Made by a program: the position numbers and the translations under genes | Assembly: GCA_038087875.1 (NCBI GenBank) | Contig: CM075994.1 | Coordinates: forward strand, 11,782,001-11,846,000 | DNA from: Malacoraja senta | Lineage: Eukaryota | Length of the DNA: 64,000 bases | Direction of reading: 5' to 3' | The notes under the pieces: model-generated | Seen by the model: only the letters and a program-made list of their open reading frames with translations | Databases searched by the model: none | Told to the model about the DNA's origin: nothing | Shown: one piece after another, positions 1-64,000 of the stretch | Position numbering within the stretch: the first letter of the stretch is position 1 | How the letters are laid out: each line of letters starts with the position of its first letter

Positions 1-592
1 AAGAATAAACAAGATATGAGATGGTCTGTAGTTTTTTATGAGGTGTTAATAAGGGATTGGAGTTCAATGTAAAACAACACCATGGAAGTCCATAAATTGT
101 TCGCCACCTTAGGTGGCTATTTGTCTTTAAGGTATCTTTTCTTAGATACCTTAACTTCACTTTTTTTTAAAAATCACTATATAAATTTGTATTTGCTTAG
201 TTTTTGTGTAATCAACTTTAAATCACAATTTTTCTTTCTTTATCTAAGGTACTTTTGGAGAAGGAGATGTAATATAAACTTAAAAACTTGGAATGACCAC
301 CCAACACCCAGAATTCTGAGGTATTTGTTTGCACCATATGATTCAAGAATACTACTTTGATATACAATGCAAGACGATAGACAAATAAAGAATGGAGGAA
401 TCACATTCTTTAGTTGGAATATAAGGGGTGCCAATGAACCAATAAAGAGGGGTAAAATTTTTGCTCACCTAAAATCTTTGAAAAGCGACATAATTTACTT
501 GCAAGAAACCCACATGAAACAGCAAACACAAATGAGATTAAAGGCGAAGTGGATAGGTCAAACATATTTTACTTCGGAGTCACGCGAGTGAC

Positions 593-627
593 TACGTGAA
601 GAACCCCGCCAGTGCGCCTGCGCGTCA
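593..627 (+). repeat. DIRS left inverted terminal repeat
   Basis: tacgtgaagaaccccgccagtgcgcctgcgcgtca is the reverse complement of 12684-12718. Confidence 0.95.
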
Positions 628-721
628 TTACGTCAGACGCCTTGACGCAAACGGACGTGAGGAGCAGAGCACCTCTAGTGGATTTGTAGGTTTTTTAACT
701 ACAAGGTAAGTAGAAAAGTTT

Positions 722-1783
722 TTGTTTTCCAGGTCCGTTTACTGTGGATCTGTGGGGATTTTTTCCACAGACCAACCGCCTCTAACCCTGGTACAGTCGC
801 CAGCGGTGAGCATAGCGACTGTGGACCTGGGGCTGATTAAAACACAGTCAGCGCTTGTCGGGCGAAAGGTGAAGTTTAAATCCCGACGGCCCACGGAGGA
901 GGAGTCCCAGGCAATGGAAGTAGCTCCAGGGCTAGATACTGCTTTTGAGCATATTGCCCAAATGGAAAGCCTTTTACATAGGCTGTTGGAGCAAAGTTCA
1001 CTCAGGGATGAGTGTACTGAAATCCAAGCTGCTGGAAGCAGCTCAACAGCTCCTGGTACAGGGCTGATGGAATGCACCCTCAGGGATGAGGAGCGTGCTA
1101 TGGGTCATAAGAGTTCTGACCCCGACTCTGACGGTGAGACTATACAAGGTGAAGAGCGGCAGCTGGCAGATATTCCACCACTGGCAGTACGATTCGCTGC
1201 CCCGTCAGGGTCAGGAGAGCCGTTAGGAGAAGAACTGGCCTCCTTAATAAATTACTTGGTTTCCCATCAGCTGGAACAGCAGGAGATGGATGAGACTGCA
1301 AGAAAGCATGAGACCCCAAGTAACTGTGTGTTGCTGAAAGCACCAGCAGCGAATCAAATCATCTGGAATCAGTTGAGTATGACTATGAGAACTCAAGAAT
1401 TAAAATTGCAGAGAATATTAAAGCTGCTGGGTTCTGGAATAACTGCTTTTGCCAGAATAGCGGATAAAAGCCAAGAGATGACGGAGTTGCATCAGGAAGC
1501 ACTGGGGTTGCTATGCAGCACCGACTTCGAGATCAATTGTCTAAGGAAAGGTGCTATACGGCCTACTATGAATCCGAAATTCGCAGCACTCTGCAAACCA
1601 AGTAATATACAATTACCCAACTTGCTCTTTGGAGAGGATCTCGGGAGACGTATTAAAGAGTTGGAAGATGAAGCGAAAACAGGATTGATGAAAACATCAA
1701 TGGTTGTAAAGTCTGTAAAGTTCTTTCAGACGTCATACGGATCCTGGACCAGGACCAAGTCGCTCATCAACGCAGGGACGTAG
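722..1783 (+). CDS. DIRS ORF1 (gag-like); true ATG probably ~913
   Basis: Long open ORF in the DIRS ORF1 position, ending with ...IRPTMNPKFAALC...LLFGEDL, which resembles vertebrate DIRS gag C-termini. Confidence 0.75.
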   Translation: MFSRSVYCGSVGIFSTDQPPLTLVQSPAVSIATVDLGLIKTQSALVGRKVKFKSRRPTEEESQAMEVAPGLDTAFEHIAQMESLLHRLLEQSSLRDECTEIQAAGSSSTAPGTGLMECTLRDEERAMGHKSSDPDSDGETIQGEERQLADIPPLAVRFAAPSGSGEPLGEELASLINYLVSHQLEQQEMDETARKHETPSNCVLLKAPAANQIIWNQLSMTMRTQELKLQRILKLLGSGITAFARIADKSQEMTELHQEALGLLCSTDFEINCLRKGAIRPTMNPKFAALCKPSNIQLPNLLFGEDLGRRIKELEDEAKTGLMKTSMVVKSVKFFQTSYGSWTRTKSLINAGT

Positions 1784-2142
1784 TTGGCGGCCTGCAGCGG
1801 GAGCAAGAACCGGTGGGGATGCTTCCGCGAGAACCCAGGGATCTCAGGGTACTCAAATGACTCAAGAGGTAGGTGAACCTGGTTCTCATGGGAATATACT
1901 AACCGGATTAAGTCCAAAAGTTGGAGGCAGATTACATCTCTTCTATAAAAATTGGAAGAAAATTACTTCAGATGTGGTAATTCTGAATAGTATACAAGGA
2001 TTTCGAATTGAATTCAATCCAAATTATGATTTGCCTGTCCAGCATGTTCCTAGCAGAACTCTCCACTTTGCACAAAAAGAAGTGATGGAGGTTCAAGCTG
2101 CACTTGAAACCCTATATACAAAAGGTGTTATTGAAGAATCAG

Positions 2143-3420
2143 GAAACGTTTTGACATGACTGGTGACCTCGACCTGTGCCAAGTCATCAAAAGCCTTCTA
2201 AACAACAGGCGCTTCTTCGTCCAACTAAACGACAAGAAGAGCAAATGGAAAGCCCAAAAGAATGGCCTACCACAAGGCAGCGTACTGGCCCCCCTCCTCT
2301 TCAACATCTACACCAATGACCAACCACTTCCCCCACAATGCTGCCGTTTCATCTATGCTGATGACCTCTGCATCACCACCCAACAGGAGAACTTCCAGAA
2401 GATTGAGCCTGTCCTGGAAAGCGCCCTCCAAGAGATGACAACCTACTACAATAACAACCACCTGAAACCCAACCCATCAAAAACCCAACAATGCAGCTTC
2501 TATCTTAAAAATCGAGATGCAGGAAAACAACTGAGCGTCTCATGGGATGCCCACAAACTCTCCAACCACTTTCACCCCGTGTACCTCGGAGTCACACTCG
2601 ACAGGACACTCTCTTTCAAAACCCACCTTCAGAACACCAAAGCCAAGGTAAACACTCGCAACAACATCCTGCCCAAACTGGTAAACTCAAAGTGGGGCGC
2701 TGATCCACCAACCATCCGTGCAACTGCTCTAGCCCTGTGCTTCTCCACAGCTGAATACGCGTGCTCAAGCTGGAGCCGCTCCCACCACACCAAACTGGTT
2801 GACACAGCCCTCAATGACACCTGCCGCATTATCACGGGATGCATAAACACAACGCCAGTCCCGTGCCTCTACGCCCTAGCTGGTATTGCCCCCCCCCCCC
2901 ATATCAGACGATCCATCATCGCCCAAGATGAGCGGAGAGCACAGATCGATACCATGCACCCCCTGCACAGACACACAGCACCTCCACCCCGACTGAAATC
3001 CAGAGCCAGTTTCTTGCAGACAGTCCCACCTCTCCAGACAACCAAAGAAACAGCAAGGACCAACATCTGGAAAGATGAATGGAACCAGCTCAACACACGA
3101 GCCCACGACTGGATGGAGAGGAATCACTCCGACTGAATGCCTCGCCAGCGGGCACGACCTCCCATGGCCAAACTGGAAGACCCACAACAGATTTTGAGTG
3201 GAGCAGGGGAGGTGTAAAGCACTTATGAAAGCATGGAACTACCAGGCAGAAGACACATGCAGCTGTGGAGCAGTACAGACAATGTCCCACCTACTGGAGT
3301 GTGACGACGCCCCCCAGTGCAGCCCCCAGGACCTGGCTGAACCGACTCGACCAGCTGTGACCTGCGCCAGATACTGGCAGAACGACATCTGAGATTGCAA
3401 CGGACTCGAAGAAGAAGAAA
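2143..3420 (+). mobile_element. 5'-truncated Vingi-like (I-group, no RNase H) non-LTR retrotransposon inside DIRS RT
   Basis: RT motifs GLPQGSVLAP, YADD, YLGVTLDRTL; C-terminal CSCG..QTMSHLLEC; (GAA)n tail; 13-bp TSD attgaagaatcag at 2130-2142 and 3421-3433. Confidence 0.85.
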
Positions 3421-4276
3421 ATTGAAGAATCAGTCTACCAAATTCACCAATTTGTGTCAAATGTATTCCCTCGATCAAAAAAGGATGGAGGATGTAGAAT
3501 TATTCTAGACTTGACAAGTCTGAATCCTTTTGTTCAATTTAGACATTTTAAAATGGAGACATTTGTGACTGCCAAACAACTTATTTCAGAAGCATGTTAT
3601 ATGGCAACTATAGATTTAAAAGATGCATATTATTCAGTGTCTGTTCACTCGGAAGATAGGAAGCATCTTAAATTTAAATGGATGAACCAGTTATGGCAGT
3701 TCAAAGCCCTGCCTAATGGGTTAACGTCCGCTGCCAGAATATTCACAATATTGTGAATATTGTTAAAACCAATTCTGGGGTTGCTGAGAAGCCAGGGGCA
3801 TGTACTTATGGCATACTTGGATGATGTCTTGATTATAGGAAAGACAAAACAGTCAACAGAAGCATCTGTTGCAGTTGTGAAATCAACTTTTGAAAATTTG
3901 AGGTTTCTAATTCATCCAAAGAAATCAACGTTAACACCATGTACCTCAATTGATTATTTGGGGTTCACAATTGATTCAGTTCAAATGAAAATCACTTTGC
4001 CCAGGGAAAAAAGGGTGGAGTTGGTTAAAGATTGCAGTAATCTGTTAAACGAGCAAAACCCCTCAATCAGACAGGTGGCTCGAGTACTGGGAAAATTAGT
4101 AGCAGCATTCCCAGCAGTCCATTACGGACCGTTGAGTAACTCAGCGGGCCGGCCCGTGGCCGGTCGTAACTGTCAGAGTGACTCGAGCGGTGACCGGTGA
4201 CACTGCTCCAGGACTTCGGGAGAAAGAGTAGAAATTAATGACCGACCGACCGTATGGAGAAAGATTCTAGAGGCCC

Positions 4277-5474
4277 ATGGCTTCAGGGAGTGGTGGGGAT
4301 GAGGGTGGTGGGTGGCAGAATGTAGGTAAGGAAAAGGGGGGCTCTAAGAGAGAGGCATCGAGCGAAAGACCCGAAATGTCAGGAGACGAAGGAAGTAAAG
4401 TTAGGAGAACTAGAATTATTGAAGAATTCGTCGTGCTGTTTAAAGTTAAAGGAACAAATCAAGGAGATGCAGGATTTAGAGCAGTGAATCCATTAAAAAT
4501 TACCACCGCTTTGGAGAGCCAGATAGGTAGGGATTTTCAGGCTAAGATTCTGTATAATGGGATGTTAAGAGTTTGTTGCAAAGACAGAAAACAGTTTAAT
4601 GATGCTAGGGGTGTGGGGAAGTTGGTGGTCAAGGTGGAGAGTTTGGTCCCTAGAGGAAGAGAGCAGGGAATAAAGGGAGTGGTGTATGGGATGTATGATG
4701 GCTTGTCTGAGAAGGAGATCTTAGAAAACGTTAAGGGGGCCCAGGTAATTGATGTTGTGAGATTTAAGAGTAGGAATGGAGTCAGGGACCCGCCGGTCCT
4801 GCTTAGGTTCAAAGATGGAGTACTGCCACAGAGTGTTACTTGGGAGTATGGCATATCAAGTGAGGGAGTACATTAAATCACCGTTGCGCTGCTATAACTG
4901 CCAGAGGTTTGGACATGTTGCTGGGTCTTGTCGGGGTAAAAGAAAGTGCGCAAAGTGCGGTCGAGATCATGCAATACAAAATTGCAAGGCAGAGGCTCCT
5001 AAGTGCCCTAACTGTGATGGGGATCATGCAGCAGGGTTTCATGGTTGTGAGCGCTTTGTTCAGGCGAAGCGAGTACAGGAAGTGAAGGATCAGAACAACG
5101 TGTCATATGCAGAGGCAGCTCAAAGGGTGGCTAGAGAACGCGGAGATGTGAGCGCTGGGACTAGAGTGGTGCTAGGAAGCCAGATCACTGTGCCAAACTT
5201 GCCGTCGGCTTTTCCATCTGACATGTTGATTTTTAATAAGGAGTCATTTCTGTCTTTTGATTCTGATGTGCTGGTAGGAGCTAAGAAAGCAGCTAACCGG
5301 TCAGATATCATCAGGTTAGTGGTGGGGGCAGCTGAAAGGTTCCTCAGTGTAAAGCAGTTGCCAGAAAAGTTGCATCAATACATGACGGAGAGTCAGTGTA
5401 TGGAGAGGTCACAGTTGTCGAGAGCTAGCAGTATGGAGTATGTCAGTGAGGTGGATGATGGTGATCCTCATTAA
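4277..5474 (+). pseudogene. Nimb ORF1 (nucleic-acid-binding, zinc knuckles), one frameshift near 4830
   Basis: CYNCQRFGHVAGSC, CAKCGRDHAIQNC, CPNCDGDHAAGFHGC. Confidence 0.88.
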
Positions 5475-5481
5475 CACCATA

Positions 5482-8400
5482 ATGTTTTATATACTTCAAT
5501 GGAACGCCCGGAGTCTGATTAGAAATGGTCAAGAGTTAAAGAGATTTGTTGATGAATTTAAAGAAGCACCAGAATTAATATGTATCCAAGAGACATGGTT
5601 AAAGCCCTGTCTAGATTTTGTAATCCCAGGTTATGAATGTGTGCGATTAGATAGGTCTGATAGATCAGGTGGGGGTTGTGCAACTTTTGTTAAGACTGGG
5701 TTGCAGTATAGGAAAGTTGATATTAATTCTAATCTTGAGGTTTTGGCTGTGGAAGTTTGGAGCAGCCAGAATTCTATCATTGTGATAAATGATTATAACC
5801 CCTGTCAACCCTTGATATTGTCAGATTTTGATGAGATAATGGAGAAGGTAAGGTGTCCTGTTATATGGATTGGAGATTTTAATGCGCATAATCCTTTATG
5901 GGGTAGTGATCACAGGGATAAAAATTGTGTTATTGTTGAAGAATTTCTAGACAAGTATGAGTTGGTATTGTTAAATGATGGAAGGCTGTCTAGGTATAAT
6001 ATTGTGAGAAACACCTGCAGCCACATAGATTTATCAATTGCTTCATCAAATTTAGCAAGAATTGGTGAATGGGATGTAATGGATAGATATACATTGGGTA
6101 GTGATCATTATCCAATTTTATGTAGGTTTGGTAGGGATTTGAGGAGAGAAGTGGAAAAGAAAGTCCCTAGATATAACTTTTATCAGGCCAAATGGGATAA
6201 ATTCCAAGAGAAGGCTCAAAGTTTAGTTGCAGAGGTTAATAGTGAGGGTTCTGTAGATAGTTGGAATACTTCCATTAGTCTCATGATTCATGAGGCAGCT
6301 TGTTGTACTATTCCTGTGAAGCAGGAACTTAGGTCCCGTATGTCTGTTCCTTGGTGGAATAAAGAATGTGATGAAGCTGTAAGGAATAGGAATATAGCCT
6401 GTCGAAAATTAAGAAAGTATCCAATTTTGGTCAATGCAATGGAGTACAAGCGGCTAAGGGCAGTAGCAAGACGAGTTTTAAAGGATGCAAAGAGGAATAG
6501 TTGGAGGAAGTTTTGTGGTACGCTAGGTCTGGAAACTCCAGTAAGGCATTTGTGGTCAGCTGTGCGTAGAATGTCAGGAGTATATAAAAGAAGTTTGTTA
6601 CCAGTGTTGCAGAAGGGTGAGGTGGTAGCAGTCACCAATAAGGAAAAAGCAGACATGTGTGTTGACAGTTTTCAAGCAGTGCATAGATCAGAGAGCATGG
6701 GAGTGGAGAGGTGTAGAAAGAGAACCGAGATGATGGCAGTTAATCAGTGGAAGCTGGAGAGGAGTTTAGTAAATGATAATACCTTTAATCTGTTTTTTAC
6801 CATAAAAGAGTTGAAGGATGCAATTATGTCTGGGGCAAATACCACCCCGGGGAGAGATAGGTTGTCGTATGAGTTATTTAAACATCTGGATGATACTATA
6901 CTTGATGAAATCTTAGCTTTGTTTAATACTGTGTGGGCAGAGGGTTATTTACCAAAGGAATGGAAACATGCAGTCGTGGTCTCTATTTTAAAACCGGGCA
7001 AAGAGGCATCTGATCCTAGTTCATATCGCCCTATAGCGCTCACAGCAGTGCTCTGTAAAATTATGGAGAGGATGGTAACCAACAGACTAGTTTATTTTTT
7101 AGAAACCAGAGGACTATTTGTTGATGTACAGAATGGCTTTAGGAATGGAAGGTCTACAATGGAGTCTGTATAAGTTTTGGATCAGGATATTAAAAGGGCA
7201 TTTAGAAGCAAGGAAACAGTAGTGAGTGTATTCCTTGATATTGAGAAGGCATATGATTCTTTGTGGAAGGAGGGATTAATGATTAAAATTTTTGACTTGG
7301 GAGTCAGGGGACGAATGTTCAACTGGATTAAGGATTTTTTATTGAATAGAACAATACAAGTAATGGTTGGTAGTGTCAGATCAGAGACTGTAGAAATAGA
7401 GAATGGAACCCCGCAGGGAAGTGTTATCAGTCCAGTTTTATTTAATATCATGATAAACGACATATTTTGTAAATTGGAGAGAGGATTTGGTCTGTCTTTG
7501 TTTGCAGATGACGAGGCCATCTGGAAACGAGGTTGTAATGTAGAGTTTGTTTTAAAACAGATTCAAAGAGTGTTAGTGTCTGCAGAGGAATGGGGGAACA
7601 CATGGTAGCAATGTTACAACATTTTGAGATTTAAAAAATAAAGTCTGCAATTTATCCCATCAGATAAAGCATAAAAAGAAGTTTAATTTGACACTTAATT
7701 CACTTTCATATCTTCAGTATTAAAGAAGTTATGGCCATTTTCATACTCAGAAATTAGCATCTAGTTCCCTATTGCTTTTCCATTGACTTAACACAAAAGC
7801 TGTGATCGAGGACAGTTAAAAGCCCATAACTTTCTTAAAAATTATGATAACTGAAAGAAATGTTCAGTTATTATAGATTGAAGCATTCTGAAACAAATAT
7901 GAAACAATCTTACTTCGAAGACATGAAAGCAAAGCATATAATTAGTTAGTTACCTAATTGTAGCTAATTACAAAATTCAATTACTAGATCTAAACATCTA
8001 TCAATTTCTTAAGAATAGATTAACATTTTTAAATAGCCTGTGGCCAAATAACATTCACACAATAATTCACAATATAACATAATTTTTAAATCTAATTTTC
8101 ATGAATTTACAGGCCAAATGGAAGGAATTGAATGTTTAATACCTGTAAATTAATGGGGATTTAAATCATTTTGCGAGTGAGGATTTCTGGAACGCGATCT
8201 TTTGGAACGTTCATTTGCGGTGAATTTAACCCCGTATTGGCATGAAAAATACTGCCGTTAGTTCGGGGAATAAAATCACCGTGTCGCATGAAAAAATGTG
8301 AATTAAAGGCTTCTTAAGAAGCACTTTTATACATTTAAAGAAACCACTTTCGTTTACCTGTCCCGTGTGTGAAATCCGTCCCCGTTATCGGCGTTGACGC

Positions 8401-10262
8401 TTCAGGAGCTGATTTTAAAATTACTCTAGCACTGACATTGACGATTTAATAAAAATAAAAAATACACAAATCGCCAGTAGGAACGATTTGTCAGCCAAGG
8501 CTTGTACTCCAACAAAATATTAACCAGGACAAGGGAGGAGAAACCCGCGTTTTAACCCTGCCCCCCCTTAAAGGCGCCAAAATCGCGCACACGGCCAGTG
8601 GCAGAATTACAGCGCGACTGAAGGTAAGTTTTGTAACATACCTACACATGGGAGTTTAAAATCTCTGCCTCTAAGACTAAATATATGGTATTTGGTTTTA
8701 AAAGAAAGTTACCTAAGTTAGGGCTGTATATGTATGGGTCTCTATTGGAGAAGGTAAAGGTTTTTAAGTTTTTGGGTGTTTGGTTTGAAGAGCGTATGAC
8801 TTGGGCTGTGCATGTAGGTAAAATTGTGTTGAAGTGTGAAAAAGTTCTGAATGTTATGAGAAGTCTGGTTGGGTGTGAGTGGGGGGCCAACAGGGAGATA
8901 ATGCTGCTAATTTATCAGGCCATGATCAGATCTTTTCTTGACTATGGGTGTTTTGTGTATGGGTCTGCGTCAAAACTGCTCTGGCTAGGCTAGATGTGTT
9001 GCAGGCAAAGGCTTTGAGGCTTTGCTGTGGAGCCTTCAGGACTTCCCCAGTCCCTGCCCTGATTGTTGAAATGGGAGAAATGCCCTTATGGTTAAGGCGC
9101 ATTAAGCTAGGGTTACATTACTGGGCTAAACTTTGTGGGTGTAATGATACCTTCCCAGCAAGGTGTTTGTTGCAAGAGGTTGATGATGGTAACAAATATA
9201 ACACATTTTTTGTCATTATAAATCAGTGGGCTAGGAAGCTGGGTTTGGAACAAGGGGGTATTATAGAGCATACAATAAGGCTACCTGTGCCCTATTGTGT
9301 TCTTCCTGAACTGTTTATTGAGCTTGCTTTTCTTCAGGAAAAAGATAAGCGCGAGGTGACTCCAAGAATAGTGGAATATCTTAATTCAATCAGTGAGAGC
9401 ACTTTGATTGTTATTACAGATGGATCTAAAGATCCAGTTAGTGGGAGAGCTGGGTTTGGAGTGTAGGTGGAGCAGCTTGGGTTGAAGATTGGCCGGCGCA
9501 TTTCTGATGGAAGTTCTGTTCTCATGACTGAATTAATGGCAATTCAATGGGCTCTATGGTGGATTGAGGAAGCCAGTTTTAGAGGTCATTATCTGTTCTG
9601 ATTCTGCAGCTGCTCTTGAAACTTTAAGAGTAGGGAAATCTAAAGCTCGTCCTGGCATTCTAAATTAAATCTTGAGTGTGTTTTCTAGAATTGGGTTTGC
9701 GTGTAACATCACTTTTTGCTGGGTTCCCGGGCATGCTGGGGTGAGGGGGAATGAGCAGGTGGACCTCATAGCAAAGGAGAGTTTAAGAAGAGAAATAGAT
9801 ATCCATGTATCATTGGGGAGAGTGGTACTGAGAGAAATAATTAAAGAGGGCTTAACAAAAGAATGGCAGAGAGGATGGGAAATGGAAGTCAGGGGTAGAC
9901 ACTACTTTTCTATACAATCTGAAGTTAGGAAAATATGTTTCTGTACATCTCTGTCCCGTAGGGACTCAGTTAAACTGTGTAGATTGAGGTTGGGACACTG
10001 TGGGTTAAATTACTATTTGTGCATTGTAGGGAAACATGTTTCTGGCTTGTGTGAATGTGGGAGTAATGAGACAGTTAAGCATGTTTTCCTAGAATGTAAA
10101 AAGTATAGGGTAGAAAGAAAAGTATTGTTTGTTAGACTGACAGGACTTGGAGTTGAGGCTTTTTCTGTTTTATCTTTGTTTGGACACAATGAGAAACATC
10201 AACTGATATCCAGGGATGTTCTTCAATTCCTGCAAGTTACAGGACTGTCTGTAAGAATTTAG
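5482..10262 (+). pseudogene. Nimb ORF2 (endonuclease-RT-RNase H), with stops and frameshifts, split by a MITE
   Basis: ILQWNARS, IQETW, GDFNAH, SDH; YRPIALT, FLDIEKAYD, GTPQGS, FADD; TDGSK, WVPGHAGVRGNEQVD; CECGSNETVKHVFLEC. Confidence 0.92.
7606..8644. mobile_element. Non-autonomous DNA transposon (MITE-like, ~1.04 kb) in Nimb RT
   Basis: Imperfect TIRs tagcaatgttacaa / ttgtaacataccta; 7-8 bp TSD (a)cacatgg; no ORF; removing it restores EEWGNTW-EFKIS. Confidence 0.85.
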
Positions 10263-12278: not shown

Positions 12279-12446
12279 ATTCCTCTGGTTTAAAGGGGAT
12301 CCGATTAATTTCATTATTAAAATGAATTACTGCATTTGTGGTACAAATGTTATTATGAATGCACGATTGATTATTCTCGTTCCGAGTCAATCAATGCAGT
12401 GAGAAGCCGGGATTGATCTACAGCATGAAATCACAAGGCTTTAAAA

Positions 12447-47117: not shown

Positions 47118-47119
47118 TC

Positions 47120-52545: not shown

Positions 52546-54133
52546 ATGGAGCAGGCAGGTGGGCACCATAGAGGTCAAGTAGGAGAAGGAAGAGGAGGAA
52601 GACGTAGTCAAAGGAATGGCAGGGGACAAACACCCCTTTTGAGAGGTGGCCATGGGCCCCGTTTGAGAGGTGGCCATGGGCCCCGTTTGAGAGGTGGCCA
52701 TGGGCCCCGTTTGAGAGGTGGCCATGGGCCCTGTTTGAGAGGTGTGGGGGAACGGGGTCGAGGACAAGGACCAAGACAGCAACGGCAAAGAGTCTCCAAT
52801 GAGATTAGAGCAATGGTTGTAGATCATGTCATCAATCATGGCATGACAATGATTGAGGCAGCGAGAATGATACAACCAAACCTTAGAAGATCAACCGTGG
52901 CCTCAATCATTAGAACTTTCCGGAATGAGAACCGGTAAGTCTTCAGCATGCACTACAGTAAACATTACAGTACTGTAGGCTACTCTTACTGTAATTGTCA
53001 AATGATTGTACACTGCATGCCAATGTGCAGCACAGAGTAGGTAATGTGACTATGAAAATGTGTTCTACAGTATGATGACATGTTCTTCCTGTCATATTCC
53101 CTACAGAATTGAGACTAGACCCAATAGTGGCGGCAGAGGCAGACTCCTCACTGAGGAACAGGAACGGGCTGTGGTCAACATGGTCCGGGCCAGAAATGAC
53201 ATTCGGCTTAGAGAAATCAGACAGAACATCCTGGACGATGAAGATCTCTTCAGGAATGTGGAAGCCATAAGTTTGCCGACCATTGCACGTGTTCTGAAAA
53301 GGCACCAGATGTCCCTCAAACAGTTGTACCGTGTGCCTTTTGAAAGAAATGCAGACAGAGTGAAGCAACTGAGGATTGAGTATGTTCAGGTATGTTCAGT
53401 TTCATGATGCGTTTGTGAAAAATTCCCCATCATTGTACTGTAATCAATACTGTACAGTAATTCTCTTTCCAACATGTCTTTTTGTACATAGAGGGCGATG
53501 GCCCTGGATGCGGATGACAATCAGCACAAATTTGTTTTTGTGGATGATGCAGGCTTCAACCTGGCCAAGACAAGGAGAGGGCGAAATTTAATTGGCCAGC
53601 GGGCAACCATACAAGTACCTGCACGACGTGGGGCCAACATCAGTACGTGTGCGGCGATATCAGAAGATGGTGTGGTAGGGCGTAGATCTCTGATTGGCGC
53701 ATACAATGCAGAGCTCCTTGTTGCATTTCTTGATGAGCTAACTCTAGTCTGTAGAGCTGTTGGTGTAATTTATGTAATTGTGTGGGACAACGTCAGGTTC
53801 CACCACGCTCATCTGGTGCAGGCATGGTTTCAGGCCCATCCACAGTTCCTCACTGTGTACGTGCCCCCATACCCTCCTTTCCTTAACCCCATTGAGGAAT
53901 TTTTCTCCACATGGAGGTGGAAAGTGTATGATCAGCATCCGCATCAACAAGTGACCCTTCTCCAGGCCATGGACAATGCCTGCGATGACATTACAGCAGA
54001 CCAGTGTCAGGCCTGGATTCGCCATGCGCGAAGGTACTTTCCAAGATGTTTGGCAAACGAAAACATCTATGCGGATGTGGATGAGAACCTGTGGCCCAAT
54101 CCACAAGACAGGGTTGATGGGGATGACGAGTGA
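52546..54133 (+). CDS. Three-exon DD35E transposase, 437 aa (exons 52546-52934, 53107-53389, 53492-54133)
   Basis: GT-AG introns (CG|gtaagt..ctacag|A; CAG|gtatgt..acatag|AGG) join the three ORFs in frame without stops; HTH region; FVDDAGF, VWDNVRFH, FLNPIEEFF with 35 residues between D and E. Confidence 0.88.
52639..52745 (+). repeat. 24-bp coding minisatellite (LRGGHGPR x4+)
   Basis: ttgagaggtggccatgggccccgt repeated. Confidence 0.92.
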
Positions 54134-54184
54134 TTGTTGATCCTTTGTTTAGCTTTTTTTTCATACTAAACTTTCTTTTCTAGT

Positions 54185-56310
54185 AAACCAGAAAAGAAAG
54201 TGATAAGGACATGGACAAATGAACATCAGGAACAACTGAAAGCCTGTTTTGAATTGACAGACTGGGAAACCTTTCAGGAGGGTTCACTAGATGAAATAAC
54301 TATAGTTACAAACGATTATATTGATTTTTGTGTACAGTTGGTTGTCCCCACTAAGGAGATTAAAATCTATCCCAACAATAAATCATATGTAACTACGGAC
54401 ATAAAAAAAAGTTATAAATACAAGGAAAGTGGCTTTAAAAAACAAAGATTCTGGGGCACTTAAACAGACAGAAAAATTACTGAAAATAAGATTGAGGGAA
54501 GTAAAATTGGCGCACAGACAGTATCTAGAAGATGCTTTCAGATCCAATAATTATAAAAAGGTGTGGGATACAATGAAATCTATGACAGGAATGTCAACCC
54601 CATCTAAATCTATTGTGACAGATAACAAACTTTCTCTTTCCAACGAACTCAACACTTTTTTTGCCAGATTTGAATCTCTAGTTAATTCTACTAAGTGTAC
54701 CGACATCCTTAAATCTGTTATACCTGCTGACTCTGACAGAATTGTCATCACTGTAGAGGATGTCAGGAAAACATTTCAGTGTACAAATACAAAGAAAGCT
54801 GCTGGGCCGGATGGATGCAGCGCTTTTCTCTTGAGGAACTTTGCAACACAGCTGGCTGCAGTGAGGCACCAAATCTTTTAGGCTTCTGTGGACACACACA
54901 CTGTCCCTCTGTCATAGAAAACGTCGCATATAAAACCTTTGCCCAAGATTCCATGTCTTAAAGAACATAAGGATTTCAGACCCATAGCCCTTACCTCGGT
55001 GATTATGAAATCTCTAGAAAGAATTTTGCTCCGACATTTCATCAGTACAACAAACAATAAACTCGATCCATATCAATTTGCCTATAAGCAGGGCTGTGGC
55101 ACGGAAGACGCTGTTGCCTCCTTAGTTCATATTATTTCTAAACATTTAGACAAACCCAACACCTATGCGAGAGCCCTCTTTCTAGATTTTCCATCAGCTT
55201 TCAACACAATACAAGCAGACATTTTGGTGTCAAAAATGGTCCAGCAAGAACTGAATCCCTATCTGATTCATTGGGATGCTTCCTTTCTTACTAACAGAGT
55301 ACAGATTGTAAAGGTGAATAAAACCCTTTCATCTGCCATCACAACCAATGTCGGGGGCCCCCAGGGTTGTGTGAGTTCAACTATGCTTTTTACCATTTAC
55401 GCTGATGATTGTCGTACAGATACACTGAATCAATATATTCTAAAGTACTCAGATGATACAGTTCCATTTTCTCTGTTAAGTAACTCAGACAACCCTGGAC
55501 TGCACCAACTCGGCGTGAACAAACTGGTCAAGTGGACTGATAATAATGCTCTTGAGATTAACACAAAGAAAACGGAATAGATTTTATTTGGCTCACCATC
55601 TGACTCATAAAGTTTCTCGTTATCCATTATGAAAAAATCAAGCAGGTATTTTCATTTAAATATTTGGGGGTAACGATAGACCATCAGTTATCATGGAATG
55701 ACCACATTGATAAGATTTGCAATAAGACAAAACAAAGAATCTGGTTTCTCCGCCGACTTAGATCTTTCAGAGCAAGTAGACAAATCCTTTTATTATTTTT
55801 TACCGCTGTGATAATGAGTGTTTTACAGTACTGTAACACTACATGGTACAAGAGTTGTCTGCTACTTCAAAATCAAAGCTGCTCCAACAGTTAAAAATCT
55901 GCTCGAAGATTGTAGGTCAACCACTTCAGAAATTGTATGAATCATCCTACCATTAAAACATGCTAAGGATGGCCAACAACATTTCTTCTGACCCCAACCA
56001 TGTTCTGAACAGTGAGTACAATTTGTTACCATCAAACCGGAGATAAAGGGTTCTAAAATATAATAAGGTTAGACTGAAGCACTCTTTTGTGCACCAGTCA
56101 ATCCTCGAACTAAATACGGTGCTTAATCCCAGATCAAATGTACGCTGATGGGCCTTAAATGTTGTCTTCTGTTATTGCAATGTGATGTTAAATGTATGTA
56201 TTTTTGGGTCCTGTCTTGATGTCTTACAGGTTGTCTTGGAGCTGATGCGATGCAAAACAAATTTCAGACTTGCTCTGACAATAATGTAACATTGTATCGT
56301 AACGTACCGT
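54185..56310 (+). mobile_element. 5'-truncated Rex1/Babar LINE
   Basis: LKACFELTDW, YPNNK, KAAGPDG, DFRPIALTS..MKSLER, LDPYQFAY, YSDD, QRIWFLRRL; tail caaatttc..gacaataatg with microsatellite-like end. Confidence 0.88.
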
Positions 56311-56510: not shown

Positions 56511-57056
56511 GCATCTGCAGTTTCTCTTACACATTTTGTCCACTCCACTGCGAAATCTCCTCAAGGTATGTCTACTTTGAAGAAGTTTTCCTCCTCTGTC
56601 TGATGAGAGTTCAGCAACATCCTCTCTCACTGCTCCCCTTCTGTGATTCCTCCTTCCCTCCGACTCTACGACCACATTTAACCCAGACCCGTTAACACAG
56701 CCACGTTTATTCTGTCCTCTGCTTGAATTCATGTGCAATAGCGCCATCTGTTGGACCTTTATTGTGAAATGGCCATTGCACACAGGAAGTAGGAAGAAGG
56801 AAGCAGGAAGTAGTCTCCTGTCTTTTGTTTGCCTGCCATGCATTAACATCTGAAGCAATCCTTTCCAATCCTGGCTTGTTACGCTTCAGAAAGCAATGGC
56901 TGCAAGTTCATTGTGTTTACTTTATGCTTAGAATCCTATATTGAAGAGTATTTATGACGGATGATGTTTAACTCCATAGCATTTGTGAATGTTCACTTTT
57001 CCGGAATACATAAAACACCAAGGCAAGAAGGCAACTGACTGGCTGTGCTGCTTCCA

Positions 57057-57551
57057 AGGTTCACCAGACTGATTCCTGGGATGTCAGGACTTTCATATGA
57101 AGAAAGACTGGATAGACTTGGCTTATACTCGCTAGAATTTAGGAGATTGAGAGGGGTCTTATAGAAACGTACAAAATTCTTATGGGGTTGGACGGGCTAG
57201 ATGCAGGAAGATTGTTCCCGATGTTGGGGAAGTCAAGGACAAGGGGTCACAGCTTAAGGATAAGGGGGAAATCCTTTAAGACCGAGATGAGAAAAAACTT
57301 TTTCACACAGAGAGTGGTGAATCTCTGGAACTCTCTGCCACAGAGGGTAGTTGAGGCCAGTTCATTGGCTATATTTAAGAGGGAGTTAGATGTGGCCCTT
57401 GTGGCTAAAGGGATCAGGGGGTATGGAGAGAAGGCAGGTACGGTATACTGAGTTGGATGATCAGCCATGATCATATTGAATGGCGGTGCAGGCTCGAAGG
57501 GCCGAATGGTCTACTCCTGCACCTATTTTCTATGTATCTATGTATCTATGT
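57057..57551 (+). mobile_element. CR1 3' fragment (same young family as the others)
   Basis: RFTRLIPGM...QRVVNLWNSLPQ; (tatgtatc)n tail. Confidence 0.92.
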
Positions 57552-58866
57552 GTTTCCGCTGCCACATCCAAAGATATGGCGCCGTGCCAAGGTGATCGCT
57601 CTGCCGAAGCCAAACAAGCCTAGCGATGACCCCAAGGGATACCGACCCATCTCACTGCTGTGTGTTCCATACAAGCTCCTGGAACGTCTCCTCCACACAC
57701 GTCTCAATCCAGAGATCCATCCCCAGCCGCCTAAAGAACAGGCTGGCTTCTGAAGCGGTAGGTCAATGACAGACCATGTGACCCTCCTGTGCCAAGACAG
57801 ATGACAGCTTCCAGGCAGGGGAGAAGGCAGGCGCTGTCTTCTTGGACCTGCATATGATACTGTCTGGCTGCGTCGACTACACATGAAGCTTCTGGAAACC
57901 ATCCCAGCCAATCACATGGTGAGCTTCATCATGGAGATGCTGAGCAACCGCAGCTTCAGGCTATACACCAGCAACGGGCAATGCAGCAGGGTGAGGAAAC
58001 TTAAGAACGGCGTCCCACAGGGCTCAGTGCTGGCACCAATGCTTTTCAATATCTATATCCATGACCTGCCTGCAACCCAATCAAAGAAGTATGGCTATGC
58101 TGATGATCTGGCCATCCTACTCAGTAAGCCATCCTGGGAAGCAGCAGAAGAGGGCCTCTCTGAAGACATGAACATCCTGCCTTCATACCTGAGGAACTGG
58201 CGACTTAAGCTCAGCATGGGTAAGACAACATCTTCAATGTTCCACCTCAACAACAGGGAAGCGACCCGCGAGATGAACGTCACGGTGGATAACGCCCGGT
58301 TACGGTCCCAGCCTGTCCCCACGTAACTCGGTGTGAAGCTCGACAGAACGTTGTCATTCAAACACCTGGAAGGTGCGAAGGCAAAGACAAGCGCCCGTGC
58401 CGCACTGATACGCCGTCTAGCCGGCACCACATGGGGAGCCACGACGAAGACACTGCGCATGGCCACAATGGCCCTGGTGTTCTCAGCCGCCGAGTACTGC
58501 GCCCCGGTCTGGTGCCGTAGCCCTCACGTCAAGAAGCTGGATGCTGCCATCAACAGCACCCTGCGGACTGTCTCCGGATGCCTAAGAGCCGCCCCACTAA
58601 ACCAACTGCCCGTCCTCGATTGCATCGCCCCAACCAACATCAGATGAGAAGCAGCCACGCTGGCCCTCTCTCGAAAGGCACAGACCAATGAATCCCACCT
58701 CCTCCATCAGATTGTCACAGAGACACCACGACGAGTGTGCCTCAAGTCACGGCACCCCTTTAACACCGGCTGACGCTTCTAAGGCTGCCTGGGTCAAGAC
58801 GAGATGGAGAGACCAGTGGAAGTCAGCGGAACCATCTAGGCTACACCAGTACATCAATGACCCCAT
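57552..58866 (+). mobile_element. Second Vingi-like LINE fragment, from a different family than 2143-3420
   Basis: YRPISLLCVPYKLLER, NGVPQGSVLAP, YADD, KLDRTLSF, WGATTKTLR..AEYCAPVW. Confidence 0.82.
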
Positions 58867-61747
58867 GGGCCACTTTTCAACATAATTGTAAAAGGGGAAA
58901 GAGCGTTGTAAAAACAAGCCTGAAGGCTTTGTGTCTCAATGCAAGGAGCATTCGTAATAAGGTGGATGAGTTGAACGTGCAGATAGCTATTAATGATTAT
59001 GATATAGTTGGGATCACGGAGACATGGCTCCAGGGTGACCAAGGCTGGGAGCTGAACATCCAGGGATATTCAATATTCAGGAGAGATAGAGAGAAAGGAA
59101 AAGGAGGTGGGGTAGCGTTGCTGGTTAGAGAGGAGATTAACGCAGTGGAAAGGAAGGACATTAGCTTGGAGGATGTGGAATCGGTATGGGTAGAGCTGCG
59201 AAACACTAAGGGGCAGAAAACGCTGGTGGGTGTTGTGTACAGGCCGCCTAACAGTAGTAGTGAAGTTGGGGATGGCATCAAACAGGAAATTAGAAATGCG
59301 TGCAACAAAGGCAAAACAGTTATAATGGGTGACTTCAATCTACATATAGATTGGGTGAATCAAATTGGCAGGGGTGCTGAGGAAGAGGATTTCTTGGAAT
59401 GTATGCGGGATAGTTATCTAAACCAACATGTAGAGGAACCAACGAGAGAGCAGGCTATTCTAGACTGGGTATTGAGTAATGAGGAAGGGTTAGTTAGCAG
59501 TCTTGTTGTGCGTGCCCCCTTGGGCAAGAGGGACCATAATATGGTTGAGTTCTTCATTAGGATGGAGAGTGACATTGTTAATTCAGAAACAATGGTTCTG
59601 AACTTAAAGAAAGGTAACTTTGAGGGTATGAGACGTGAATTGGCCAAGATTGACTGGCAATTAGTTCTAAAAAGGGTTGACGGTGGATATGCAATGGAAG
59701 GCATTTAAAGACTGCATGGATGAACTACAAAAATTGTTCATCCCAGTTTGGCAAAAGAATAAATCAGGGAAGGTAGTGCATCCGTGGATAACAAGCGAAA
59801 TCAGGGATAGTATCAAAGCAAAAGATGATGCGTACAAATTAGACAGAAAAAGCAGCATATCAGAGGACTGGGAGAAATTCAGACACCAGCGGAGGAGGAC
59901 AAAGGGCTTAATTAGGAAAGGGAAAATAGATTATGAAAGTAAACTGGCAGGGAACATAAAACTGACTGCAAAAGTTTTTATAGATATGTGAAGAGCAAGA
60001 GATTAGTTAAACAAATGTAGGTCCCTTGCAGTCAGAAACAGGTGAATTGATCATGGAGAACAAGGATATGGCGGACCAATGAATAACTATTTTGGTTCCG
60101 TCTTCACTAAGGAAGCCATAAATAATCTGCCGGAAATAGCAGGGGACCGCGGGTCAAAGGAGATGGAGGAACTGAGTGAAATCCAGGTTAGTCGGGTAGT
60201 GGTGTTGGGTAAATTGAATGGATTAAAGGCCGATAAATCACCAGGGCCAGATAGGCTGCATCCAGAGTACTTAAGGAAGTACCTCCAGAAATAGTGGATG
60301 CATTAGTGATAATTTTTCAAAACTCTTTGGATTCTGGAGTAGTTCCTGAGGATTGGAGGGTAGCAAACGTAACCCCACTTTTTAAGAAGGGAGGGAGAGA
60401 GAAAACGGGGGAATTACAGACCAGTTAGTCTAACATCGGTAGTGGGGAAACTGCTAGAGTCAGTTATTAAAGATGGGATAGCAGCACATTTGGAAAGTGG
60501 TGAAATCATTGGACAAAGTCAGCACGGATTTACGAAAGGTAAATCATGTCTGACGAATCTTATAGAATTTTCAGAAGGCTTTCGACATGGTCCCACATAA
60601 GAGATAGTATACAAACTTAAAGCACACGGTATTGGGGGTTCAGTATTGATGTGGATAGAGAACTGGCTGGCAAACAGGAAGCAAAGAGAGGTCCTTTTCA
60701 CAATGGCAGGCAGTGACTAGTGGGGTACCGCAAGGCTCAGTGCTGGGACCCCAGCTATTTACATATATTATATTAATGAACTGTATGAGGGAATTGAAGG
60801 CAACATCTCCAAGTTTGCGGATGACACTAAGCTGGGGGGCAGTGTTAGCTGTGAGGAGGATGCTAGGAGACTGCAAGGTGACTTGGATAGGCTGGGTGAG
60901 TGGGCAAATGTTTGGCAGATGCAGTATAATGTGGATAAATTTGAGGTTATCCACTTTGGTGGCAAAAACAGGAAAGCAGACTATTATCTAAATGGTGGCC
61001 GATTAGGAAAAGGGGGAGACGCAGCGAGACCTGGGTGTCATGGTACACCAGTCATTGAAAGTAGGCATGCAGGTGCAGCAGGCAGTGAAGAAAGCGAATG
61101 GTATGTTAGCTTCATAGGCAAAAGGATTTGAGTATAGGAGCAGGGAGGTTCTACTGCAGTTGTACAGGGTCTTGGTGAGACCACACCTGGAGTATTGCGT
61201 ACAGTTTTGGTCTCCAAATCTGAGGAAGGACATTATTGCCATAGAGGGAGTGCAGAGAAGGTTCACCAGACTGATTCCTGGGATGTCAGGACTTTCATAT
61301 GAAGAAAGAATGGATAGACTCGGCATATACTCGCTAGAATTTAGGAGATTCAGAGGGGATCTTATAGAAACTTACAAAATTCTTATGGGGTTGGACAGGC
61401 TAGATGCAGGAAGATTGTTCCCGATGTTGGGAAGTCCAGGATAAGGGGTCTCAGCTTAAGGATAAGGGGGAAATCCGTTAAGACCGAGATGAGAAAAGCA
61501 TTTTTCACACAGAGAGTGATGAATCTCTGGAACTCTCTGCCACAGAGGGTAGTTGAGGCCCAGTTCATTGTCTATATTTAAGAGGGAGTTAGATGTGGCC
61601 CTTGTGGCTAAAGGGATCAGGGGGTATGGAGAGAAGGCAGGTACGGGATACTGAGTTGGATGATCAGCCATGATCATATTGAATGGCGGTGCAGGCTCGA
61701 AGGGCCGAATGGCCTACTCCTGCACCTATTTTCTATGTATCTATGTA
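58867..61747 (+). mobile_element. 5'-truncated CR1 with nearly whole ORF2 (frameshifted, small deletions)
   Basis: LNARSIRNK, GITETW, GDFN, GVPQGSVLGP, FADD, RPHLEYCVQFW; tail ctatgtatctatgta. Confidence 0.93.
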
Positions 61748-61761
61748 AAAGACATATGACA

Positions 61762-64000
61762 GGACTTCCGGTGGCGCCATGGAGTAGGAGAGACTCGCGC
61801 CGACTAGCTCCGGGGAAAAAACGTTGAAAACGGGGGAAAAAGAACGGGACCTACCTCTGGAAAACGGCACCGAGTGTTTGCAACAGGTCCGTGACGTCAT
61901 CAGGCGCGCGACACCGGCAGTATGTCGATTCAACATACCCCCCCCCCAAGATGAGAAAAAACGGTAAGGGAAAAGAGGCAGGCCCACCTGAAGCCTCGGG
62001 CTCAGTTTTAACAGTATCCCAAGAAAATATCTCAAGGAAGAAAAAAACAGATGTGGAAGAATTAAGAACCTTCCTGACACAGGAAATCTCTAATATAATG
62101 AAAGAATTTAAAAAATCTTAAACAGGAGCTGAAATCTTTAAAAGATGAAATTAAAGAACAAATTAAAGATGAGGTTACAGCTTCTGTGCATGAATGTACT
62201 GGAAGACTGCAAATTAACCATGGAAGAAAATATGCATCAAAATACTGAAGAAGTATATGATAAACTGAATTCGATGGAATCCAGATTTGATGCTAAGTTG
62301 GAGCCTATCCTCCAGACATTAAATCAACACCACGAAGCAGTAAAGGAATTGAGGAAATTGCTGAGACGAGCACCGAAACAACAAATAAACTTATTGCCGA
62401 GAACAAACGCCTATCGAAGTTATTACATCAAATAACCGAAGAATGTATTGACTTGGAGGGACGACAGAGACGTCAGAATTTAAGAATCGTAGGCGTCCAG
62501 GAAGGCAGAGAGGGGAATCGTGACCCTCGCGAATTTGCTGCAGATCTGCTGAAAAAAGTCTTGAAACTGGATCAAGCACCGTTAATTGCCCGAGCGCACA
62601 GAGTATCAAGACATCGCCCAGGGGTGGGCGCCCCCCAAGACAACTGATAGTGAAGGTGCAATATGACCATGTTTTGGATGATATGATGAAGATAATTGTT
62701 CAAAGCAGAAACCTCGGATTTGAAGGAGACAAGATAAGCATATTTAGAGATTATCCTGTGGAAGTCGCCAAGAAGAGAGCGCTGTTTACAGAAACAAGAA
62801 TACTTAAGAATATAAACAATTTGAGATATGGACTGTTACATCCCGCAACATTAAGAGTGACCTATGAGCGGAAGGAACATTTCTTCGTCAAGCATACAGA
62901 GGCACTTGAATTTGCCCAGAGCATCGTGGATAAGACCGAAGATTGAATAATATTCTACACCCAACATTCACCTGAAGACAGTGGAAACTGTTATCCTGCA
63001 GAGAAGAGATGGAACTTTAAACTATCATTTTTAAGAACTGTCCCCATTCTTCTTGCAGATTTTGTCCAAGATCTGCGGGAAGAATTGGGCAATTATCTCG
63101 CTACTGATACATAAAATTTACATTTTAGTACTAATTTCTAACAATTAATTCTAATCACGAATACTAATCAATACTAATTATTGTTAACTGGACCAACTTA
63201 GAATTGATTAAAAGTATGAAATATAAGTAAAGTGTGATCCAAGTAATTAATTAATAAAATATAGGAAGTTTTTTCCTTGCTATTTTGGATATTTGGATAT
63301 TTTGGACTTTGATTACTCTTTAACAATGTTTTTTGATTACTCTTTAATACTGTTTTTTGATTACTCTTTAACAGTGACTTCCCCCTTTTTTTTTTAAATT
63401 AAAAAAAAGAGAGGAAAAATATTTTTAGCTTGCTATATGATACTAACATTTTAATTGGACACTAACAAATACTTCAATTATGGAATAAAACTATTGTTTC
63501 CCTCCCCCCCATAAATTGTCTTCATTGTAATTGAAACTTTTCTTTTAAGGAAAGTACGGAGCTAGTAATAATTTTTTTTTAACAAAAGCTACAGAAGTCT
63601 TTAGATGTTTAGCCACACTAGGGTGGCTATCACTAACTGCACTAATCATAGTTGTAGTTTTCTTCTTTTTCTACTTTTTACACGTTACTAATACAACATT
63701 TTATTACCTTTTCTATCTTATGTTATAATATATTTTGTATTTGGAATGGAATTATATGTTTTATTTAGGGAGATATGTCCGGATGAAAAACAGACGAGAC
63801 TTAGAATTCATCTACCTGAGGTTCAAGTATAAGGTAGGGTTTAGTGCGCTGAGCCATCTGCTCCAACATAGACCACTTTAATCACAAGATGCAAGACGTT
63901 AATATAAAAATTGGGGGTGAAGGAATTAAATTCTGTAGCTGGAATGTTAAGGGGAAAAAACAATTTACAAAATTACATCAGATAATGGAGAAACATTAAC
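61762..64000 (+). mobile_element. L1 copy B: 5' end, ORF1 (61951-62946, broken), spacer, ORF2 start (63889); runs off the window
   Basis: ggacttccggtggcgccatgg start; LEGRQRRQNLRIVGVQEG, IARAHR, IFRDY, LLHPATLRV (L1 ORF1); MQDVNIK..FCSWNVKG. Confidence 0.88.

Follow-up and report, generated by a model that had tools for sequence, protein, structure and literature searches.

Co-oriented transposable elements in a duplicated domain of Malacoraja senta: a candidate uni-strand piRNA source

Comparison with described piRNA loci

Uni-strand piRNA clusters yield 24-32 nt, 1U piRNAs of one strand, cut from a single long precursor that starts at a discrete promoter and is antisense to the TEs, and they hold copies of active or recent TE families. 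The Drosophila flamenco and flam-like loci exceed 100 kb and are dense in transposable elements (TEs) of one dominant orientation, with nested and deleted copies; they are detected by a sliding strand-bias scan and tolerate occasional sense insertions (PMC10643416). In the available text of that study, strand-bias scans foretold genuine uni-strand clusters, and the bias of flam-like loci is driven by Gypsy LTR elements exclusively (PMC10643416). In vertebrates, the mammalian pre-pachytene piC-DoGs (e.g. Zim2) comprise one long transcript, potentially of more than 100 kb, with dense, antisense-enriched TE fragments and both LINE and ERV targets (PMC11615739). Most clusters of the axolotl, a non-mammalian vertebrate, are likewise uni-strand, with piRNAs over many TE classes, and the same source reports the cytoplasmic piRNA genes, Pnldc1 excepted, in elephant shark (PMC7618676). 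Moreover, piRNAs have been listed from the gonads of elephant shark and the liver of bamboo shark (PMC8538981). Retroelements within introns also show an antisense bias, which follows the same selective logic, as sense insertions harm the host transcript (PMC1794541).

Here we describe a 64,000-nt stretch of the Malacoraja senta genome (GCA_038087875.1, contig CM075994.1, positions 11,782,001 to 11,846,000; hereafter the window) and its surroundings. In the window and its flanks, 41 of 43 insertions from about ten TE classes lie on the plus strand (p = 2e-10). The first-pass annotation had proposed a flamenco-like uni-strand piRNA cluster, and a strong strand bias over roughly 100 kb or more is indeed present; it is not Gypsy-specific, however, as LINEs, DIRS, Penelope, BEL, ERV and Tc1 elements share it and the clear exception is itself a Gypsy, so that the domain is not strictly flamenco-like. 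Flam-like loci are further described as enriched in Gypsy elements, located away from centromeres and telomeres, and expressed in somatic follicle cells without ping-pong (PMC10643416); they are also single, in contrast to the paralogue family reported here. The piC-DoGs arise by read-through of an identified host gene on the same strand, directly upstream of them (PMC11615739), whereas an upstream minus-strand gene was not found in our sampled tiles, and both class diversity and copy number are higher in the present domain. Axolotl clusters are defined by small RNAs and have a median length of 10 kb, and the available text gives neither TE co-orientation nor segmental amplification for them (PMC7618676). 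The intronic bias is two- to four-fold and accompanied by ERV depletion (PMC1794541), compared with an approximately 20-fold bias and TE accumulation in our domain.

The TE layout fits a uni-strand piRNA source; the interpretation as such a source is partly supported, and the locus is a candidate. Our literature search retrieved no description of a large TE-archive piRNA cluster in this vertebrate lineage, although the supplementary cluster tables of the papers might hold comparable loci. Should the domain prove to act as a piRNA source, this lineage would have a large TE-archive cluster that differs from flamenco by covering nearly all TE classes.

Elements of the window and their orientation

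The elements of the window are given below from left to right, with coordinates, strand and description.

1..64000, +, whole window, the middle stretch of a ~140-kb domain of co-oriented TEs
1..565, +, 5' part of L1 #1, with its ORF1 in L010; interrupted by DIRS and picking up at 12783
566..12792, +, DIRS retrotransposon with gag-like ORF, RT and tyrosine recombinase; inverted termini
2143..3420, +, Vingi-like LINE fragment within DIRS; target-site duplication present
4219..10338, +, Nimb/I-clade LINE (EN, RT, RNase H) within DIRS; dispersed copies 98% identical
7605..8644, no orientation, non-coding terminal-inverted-repeat element within Nimb; target-site duplication
12783..14092, +, L1 #1 ORF2, endonuclease part
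14100..20540, +, L2-type LINE in two pieces, 14100-14900 and 19601-20540, on either side of Gypsy A
14901..19601, +, Gypsy A LTR element; LTRs identical at 184 of 189 aligned bases; 5-bp target-site duplication
20812..22512, no orientation, terminal-inverted-repeat element with a 37-bp tandem array inside
22513..25318, +, 5' region of a CR1 with 89-bp repeats, esterase ORF1 and the start of EN; probably one element with 42171-45212
24471..25217, +, short non-coding element whose orientation follows from AATAAA and a (TTA)n tail; missing in the C1228 and C4418 copies
25319..42159, +, BEL/Pao LTR element, then a second 5' segment; gag at 26.5-28.1 kb, pol at 38.2-40.7 kb; LTRs 286/292 identical
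28165..38201, +, CR1 within BEL, split by Gypsy B, without 3' end
29503..36248, -, Gypsy B, the only insertion clearly opposed to the rest; LTRs 207/211 identical; integrase region disrupted by a 591-bp tandem amplification, gag broken by a CR1 piece
35528..35752, +, CR1 3' fragment within Gypsy B
42171..45212, +, RT and 3' end of a CR1 that Penelope interrupts
43164..44267, +, Penelope-like element (RT end, GIY-YIG); target-site duplication
45500..47900, +, old fragments, namely 3' ends of Rex1 type, LTR and gag (DUF7041) of Gypsy C, and 3' ends of old CR1 elements
48135..48250, -, short Penelope-tail-like fragment
48600..51400, +, endogenous retrovirus with broken pol (RT-RNase H, integrase) and LINE pieces in between
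52035..54400, +, Tc1-like DNA transposon (DDE_3)
54405..56127, +, Rex1-type LINE
57056..58760, +, CR1 3' end, then a second Vingi-like LINE
58867..61747, +, CR1 (EN, RT, 3' end)
61762..64000, +, L1 #2 (5' end, ORF1), running on into L011

Family labels such as Vingi, Nimb, Rex1, L2 and DIRS are presumptive, being drawn from motifs and Pfam domains rather than from a repeat library. After fragments were merged by hand and tandem copies counted once each, 21 of 22 insertions in the window lie on the plus strand (binomial p = 1.1e-5), which bears out the near-total co-orientation first reported. Gypsy B had been named as the only element clearly on the minus strand, and it stands as the sole clear exception; the ~110-bp Penelope-tail-like piece is also on the minus strand, and counting it gives a tally of 21:2 (p = 6.6e-5). 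This repeat forms hairpins in both orientations elsewhere, and its orientation is therefore weak evidence. An automated annotation of the window with an oriented library placed 32 fragments on the plus strand and 2 on the minus strand, and oriented matches cover 51 of the 64 kb; the outlying tiles L001-L006 have 1.3-6.5 kb of such cover in every 10 kb.

Out of 427 stop-free frames at least 60 aa long, 415 went into the Pfam scan (187 of 195 on the plus strand, 228 of 232 on the minus strand), the 12 omitted frames lying within the 591-bp tandem repeat of Gypsy B. TE-domain matches occur on the plus strand along the whole window, and on the minus strand in just two frames, both belonging to Gypsy B. 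No host domain was found among the scanned frames, in keeping with the original description of a window free of host exons, at a threshold that exons shorter than 60 codons would escape. An Rfam search returned 0 matches and a tRNA search found 0 genes. Two element identities were revised: the seven CR1 insertions previously counted become about six, as BEL seems to have split a single element into the segments at 22.5-25.3 kb and 42.2-45.2 kb, and the foamy-like virus is not established, the RT piece matching Gag-Pol / RT-RNase H p80 chains (E 1.6e-11), which we take to be murine leukaemia virus RT, and the integrase piece matching PFV integrase only at E 0.026. From their sequence, this RT piece and the integrase piece may represent a single ERV. 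The plus-strand reading of the CR1 piece inside Gypsy B was correct.

The domain holds copies of recent or active TE families. A full-length L1 is ~100% identical to 19 listed dispersed copies; the corresponding figures are 98% for Nimb and 96-97% for Gypsy A, and the LTR pairs are 97-98% identical. The DIRS::Nimb junction is present on contig C2625 too, so Nimb and DIRS may not represent independent insertions.

Extent of the domain and its duplicated copies

The locus extends past the window and belongs to a large set of duplicated copies, both of which the first-pass annotation missed. Its proposal to extend into the flanks yielded both boundaries: the co-oriented domain spans ~140 kb, from about -38,500 in window coordinates (near L007:1500) to the contig end at +104,500, and the right boundary lies about 3-7 kb into L023, on the paralogous contig C4671. 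Contig C18 stops 40.5 kb beyond the window with no telomere array, and the C4671 copy runs on for ~600 kb. LINEs predominate in the domain; its four Gypsy insertions are three on the plus strand and one on the minus strand, and an ISL2EU-like transposase is also on the minus strand, an observation that goes against a uni-strand reading. No host Pfam domain was found in 207 unmasked frames of at least 70 aa from L001-L014, all four matches being of TE type.

Outside the domain, 13 tiles carry plus- and minus-strand fragments at 32:35 (domain versus outside, Fisher p = 8e-8, a comparison of insertions with fragments, whose units differ), and the DNA just adjoining the domain is at 16:14. For a wider background we used the CR1 motif, a single family, in about 4.4 Mb of a single scaffold (C1), where exact matches, among those listed, number 92 on the plus strand and 93 on the minus strand. 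The longest same-strand run is 13, across a 1.9-Mb stretch without listed matches, and 10 when that stretch is left out. One of 15 background bins of 145 kb reaches 9:1, so strong local biases do exist elsewhere. Within the scope of these neighbouring and control regions, the bias is not a general one, as the earlier account had required of its proposal.

These controls bear on the possibility that the bias arises at insertion or from local structure, through preference for the resident orientation (A-rich targets, replication-fork direction) or recombinational loss of inverted copies from an unstable amplicon. The region does form an amplicon whose blocks recur inverted on C4046 and C2694, and nested insertions are many, the DIRS::Nimb junction recurring on C2625. 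We nevertheless consider such an origin improbable: L001-L006 and L024-L028, neighbouring parts of the same amplicon, show no bias; the TE-dense nest on C2625 is mixed (7:9), which indicates that nesting by itself does not co-orient TEs; and adjacent CR1 ends on C1 agree in orientation in 100 of 184 pairs. Removal of inverted repeats would moreover work within a family and could not align unrelated classes.

Junction-spanning copies of the domain were found on at least 20 other contigs, 92-99% identical, some of them possibly haplotigs, and the span from L007 to L012 measures 98-144 kb in nine copies. Such duplication means that uniquely mapping reads, the assay first suggested, are the wrong test for most of the locus. 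Of the orientable insertions that postdate duplication, all nine are co-oriented (p = 0.004), comprising five of five gained in other copies, where one further gain is a simple repeat without orientation, and four of four private to the window's own copy. This count covers insertions whose DNA was obtained; further private insertions show as gaps in alignments of other copies. One of the later co-oriented insertions is the full-length L1 with ~100% identity to 19 listed dispersed copies, which apparently belongs to an active family. The Gypsy B junction is common to two other domain copies.

The same copies speak to whether a few co-oriented elements were multiplied by chance and duplication, or mis-joined in assembly. 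Small unplaced contigs carry many of the copies, part of which may reflect uncollapsed haplotypes, and tandem structures are present in Gypsy B (the 591-bp array) and L014 (tandem Penelope). Against this, the co-oriented elements belong to unrelated classes, several have their own target-site duplications, and tandem copies were counted once; the copies also differ by 1-8% and carry private insertions with short junction overlaps that fit target-site duplications. This explanation is largely refuted, and we regard it as very improbable.

Neighbouring genes and a possible minus-strand transcript

Left of the domain, in the 100 kb covered on that side of the window, GPCR genes are clustered, each of them complete with two exons. 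The nearest is complete within L005, with both coding exons well to the left and an unbiased 10-kb tile between, which rejects the coding intron of this gene as the location of the domain and, as far as checked, agrees with the window not lying in an intron of a minus-strand gene. A protein atlas look-up returned generic rhodopsin-family clusters only; the name GPR139-like is presumptive, and a literature search gave it no support. On the right, ZSWIM-like sequences and GC-rich segments follow on C4671 and C2694, and no minus-strand host exons were found beyond the boundary in the sampled tiles, which leave two gaps on C4671. Nor were coding exons found flanking the domain on this side, at a resolution that would miss short ones. 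Across the ~24 kb right of the boundary, TEs are mostly on the minus strand, another observation at odds with a uni-strand reading.

The main rival to a piRNA source is a long non-coding transcript or intron, the domain belonging to a dosage-sensitive minus-strand gene or lncRNA, as its body, a very long intron or a 3' read-through zone, amplified with its surroundings and purged of sense insertions that terminate or mis-splice the transcript, with no piRNAs involved. Purging of sense insertions from introns is established (PMC1794541), bounded domains and a bias persisting in paralogues are equally expected, short or non-coding exons would slip past Pfam scans, and the ZSWIM-like and GC-rich sequences lie to the right. 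Against this, it is the plus strand of the block that carries the ZSWIM-like frames, flanking coding exons were not found, and an unbiased tile lies between the domain and the left GPCR gene, itself complete. The 95% bias also exceeds the two- to four-fold figure published for ERVs and reaches LINEs and a DNA transposon, and introns are reported as ERV-poor (PMC1794541), against a domain full of long young elements. An intron-like bias would give 41 of 43 with probability 7e-6 at 2:1, 5e-3 at 4:1 and 0.18 at 9:1, the last of which counts against the uni-strand reading. Overall we judge this alternative unlikely, yet worth serious attention; were it true, the orientation bias would still be unusually strong.

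We consider it probable that the window forms the centre of a uni-strand piRNA-precursor locus, one of a family transcribed from the minus strand, in which antisense insertions are kept and sense insertions purged. A single long Pol II transcript would run right to left along the minus strand. TEs would insert both ways, those antisense to the transcript being tolerated or favoured for the antisense piRNAs they would yield, and those in sense being purged as their poly(A) and splice signals would truncate the precursor; duplication would then enlarge the trap target. No promoter was identified. On the paralogous contig, a minus-strand ERV and a GC-rich segment lie right of the boundary, ahead of the ZSWIM-like sequences, and a promoter might, speculatively, be situated just past it.

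A broader form of this proposal is quite possible, though we hold it tentatively: an amplified family of ten or more pan-class uni-strand piRNA loci of 70-150 kb (1-2 Mb together), multiplied through segmental duplication by the GPCR array, may defend the germline, with every copy continuing to capture LINEs, DIRS, Penelope, LTR and DNA elements in antisense. If so, the paralogues would serve as natural replicates for testing the trap model. If the domain is a piRNA source, its many paralogues with datable private insertions would show directly if sense insertions are purged and if a family declines only after being trapped, a long-standing question of that model.

Direct signals of transcription direction were also sought. 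Substitution asymmetry in young CR1 copies gave none (A>G 13/2536, T>C 10/1814). A sequencing-run search with positions 19500-29400 of the window showed no RNA run among the 22 rows listed, which does not bear on expression. Depletion of AATAAA on the minus strand was not seen in 134 kb (95 on the minus strand versus 121 on the plus strand; controls 85 versus 89), which goes against a uni-strand reading, as does the 6.7-kb Gypsy B, which bears LTR poly(A) signals and lies mid-domain in the predicted sense orientation.

Orientation of insertions and extent of the domain

The assembly comprises 1.94 Gb in 6,182 contigs; the window occupies C18:11,782,001-11,846,000, and contig C18 ends 40.5 kb right of it. 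Repeat and GPCR features agree with the first-pass view that the animal is probably a cartilaginous fish. A Pfam scan covering 415 of the 427 stop-free frames of at least 60 aa in the window placed RT, endonuclease, integrase, tyrosine recombinase, Pao protease, esterase and DDE domains on the plus strand along its whole length; minus-strand matches were confined to Gypsy B (window 29503..36248). Using an oriented TE library of unaltered sequence slices, we assigned 32 window fragments to the plus strand and 2 to the minus. Merging split elements leaves 21 plus and 1 minus insertions (p = 1.1e-5), or 21:2 (p = 6.6e-5) if a short reversed Penelope-tail fragment is included. Target-site duplications flank several insertions, the LTRs within each pair share 97-98% identity, and nesting is deep (L1 > DIRS > Vingi and Nimb > MITE), with further nests in L2 > Gypsy A and CR1 > BEL > CR1 > Gypsy B > CR1 piece. 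Within Gypsy B (window 30718-33088), a 591-bp unit spanning the RNase H end and integrase start is amplified in tandem and in frame, giving an open frame of 1114 aa with repeated integrase zinc fingers.

Fifteen flank stretches (L001-L015) were used to trace the bias on C18. Its onset is near L007:1500, some 38 kb before the left edge of the window, and it persists as far as C18 extends; fragments in L008-L015 number 35 plus and 1 minus (20 and 1 insertions), and 41 of the 43 insertions in window and flanks lie on the plus strand. The near-total co-orientation claimed in the first-pass annotation is real, and stronger than first stated. The lone minus-strand insertion in L008-L015 is the transposase of what we take to be an ISL2EU-like DNA transposon, whose companion YqaJ gene is on the plus strand:

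L011:6332-6934, plus strand, YqaJ exonuclease piece, facing the transposase piece
L012:2662-3622, minus strand, THAP/HTH_Tnp_4 transposase piece, with DIRS between it and the YqaJ piece

Extension into the flanks, as had been suggested, located both edges, the right one in the copy on contig C4671, where the plus-strand run stops 3-7 kb into L023. Beyond it, the minus strand carries Rex1, Penelope, CR1 and what is left of an ERV (env/integrase), followed by GC-rich segments and ZSWIM1/3-like frames on the plus strand; the ZSWIM-like sequences may represent either a host gene family or a Mutator-type transposon.

L024:3200-7800 (C4671), minus strand, internally deleted ERV remnant with env (TLV_coat) and integrase C-terminal matches, direct terminal repeats and CR1 inside
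L026:4084-4383, plus strand, ZSWIM3-N match, in repeated sequence to the right of the block
L027:3110-3692, minus strand, ZSWIM1/3 RNase H-like match, likewise in repeated sequence to the right of the block

Segmental copies and later insertions

The whole composite recurs on other contigs, with junction-spanning matches at 92-99% identity. The L007 segment occupies 17 places on 15 contigs, C18 included, and the union of comparisons puts domain copies on at least 20 contigs besides C18, a lower bound given that scoring was limited to the best candidates; uncollapsed haplotypes could account for some copies and bring the true number down to about half. Contigs C4046 (L007 matches at 168-177 kb, minus, and 306-315 kb, plus) and C2694 (52-61 kb, plus, and 204-213 kb, minus) each carry two block copies in opposite orientation, forming large palindrome-like amplicons. 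The span between the L007 and L012 anchors ranges from 98 to 144 kb across nine copies, with one further copy measuring 73 kb to the L013 anchor; TE load therefore differs between copies.

Four insertion gaps visible in the paralogue alignments were retrieved, and their contents are given here with the C18-specific insertions:

C4671 gap, block orientation, full L1, Rex1 nested in that L1, and another LINE
C182 gap, block orientation, Rex1
C4418 gap, block orientation, L1 3' piece
Fourth gap, simple repeat without orientation
C18 copy, block orientation, Rex1 piece missing from the paralogues
C18 copy at 24.5 kb of the window, block orientation, element missing from two paralogues
L014:996-8048, block orientation, tandem Penelope-like element (unit ~3.9 kb) missing from C4671
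L010:1792-8419, block orientation, C18-specific full-length L1 of 6.6 kb

All orientable elements agree with the block, both in the paralogue gaps (5/5) and on C18 (4/4). This co-orientation of post-duplication gains (9/9, p = 0.004) indicates that the bias was maintained after duplication in several copies, and is more than inherited. The L014 element is 98-99% identical to many dispersed copies. At least 19 dispersed copies among the matches listed share ~100% identity with the L010 L1, which suggests that this L1 is younger than the duplications, and its family appears to have been active very recently. The domain is a bounded, multi-copy, pan-class co-oriented TE region that takes up young elements. 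Insertion or recombination bias is, in our estimate, an improbable cause of the pattern.

Neighbouring genes and orientation elsewhere

In the six tiles left of the domain (L001-L006) TE orientation is mixed (16:14), and four two-exon rhodopsin-type GPCR genes are present:

L001:1226-1900, plus strand, GPCR gene (7tm_1)
L002:9049-9965, exon 1 at L003:~1585, minus strand, GPCR gene (7tm_1)
L004:1978-2700, exon 1 at ~6423, minus strand, broken GPCR gene (7tm_1)
L005:645-1570, exon 1 at ~3964, minus strand, GPCR gene (7tm_1) nearest to the domain

This tandem array may be GPR139-like; identity to the L001 copy, itself found on at least six other contigs, is 39-54%. The window was considered as a coding intron of the nearest gene and this was ruled out, since both coding exons lie within L005 and the intervening L006 is unbiased (4:4 by the oriented library; 3:10 by window-relative matches).

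A TE nest on contig C2625 gives 7:9, and DNA right of the block 4:6 on C4671 and 5:6 on C2694. The CR1 3' motif is balanced genome-wide (76,621 vs 76,274). Among the matches listed on contig C1, exact motifs number 92 plus and 93 minus, neighbours agree in 100/184 pairs, and 1 of 15 bins of 145 kb stands at 9:1, so strong single-family skews do arise. We judge chance or artefact highly improbable for the domain. The C2625 nest (L016-L017) is rich in DIRS elements, which belong to several subfamilies and point both ways. The window's Nimb-DIRS junction (Nimb at 4219-10338) was found again at C2625:13058-19165, and a second Nimb copy (C19:10.94 Mb) adjoins DIRS sequence; either the composite was mobilised as a unit, or Nimb favours DIRS targets.

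A candidate piRNA source

Judged from its sequence, the domain is a reasonably probable piRNA source. A long minus-strand transcript would span it, the need for that transcript to stay intact would select against sense insertions, and the product would be antisense piRNA. Against this reading, Gypsy B is kept in sense relative to the putative transcript in at least three copies, and a search for AATAAA depletion on the minus strand found none. Substitution asymmetry was uninformative as a strand signal, and no promoter for the putative transcript was found. A long intron, or a lncRNA without piRNAs, offers a possible though rather unlikely alternative: 41/43 has a probability of 0.18 at a 9:1 bias, falling to 5e-3 at 4:1 and 7e-6 at 2:1. 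Intronic ERV biases are two- to four-fold and accompanied by ERV depletion in the portion of PMC1794541 available, whereas TEs pile up here.

If the domain is indeed a piRNA source, the earlier label 'flamenco-like' fits in the sense of working like flamenco, but not as defined in PMC10643416, where the accessible text describes a strand bias exclusive to Gypsy; the bias here is pan-class. Vertebrate precedents, according to excerpts of each source, include mammalian piC-DoGs with antisense TEs across ~100 kb (PMC11615739) and axolotl clusters, mostly uni-strand at 10 kb (PMC7618676); an extract of PMC5340914 gives those of zebrafish and chicken as dual-strand. In the literature covered, in which subscription journals were thinly represented, no account of piRNA cluster loci from sharks, rays or skates was found; the part of PMC8538981 available cites a paper on bamboo shark liver piRNA. 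If piRNAs are made, segmental amplification and pan-class capture would be the distinctive points of the locus.
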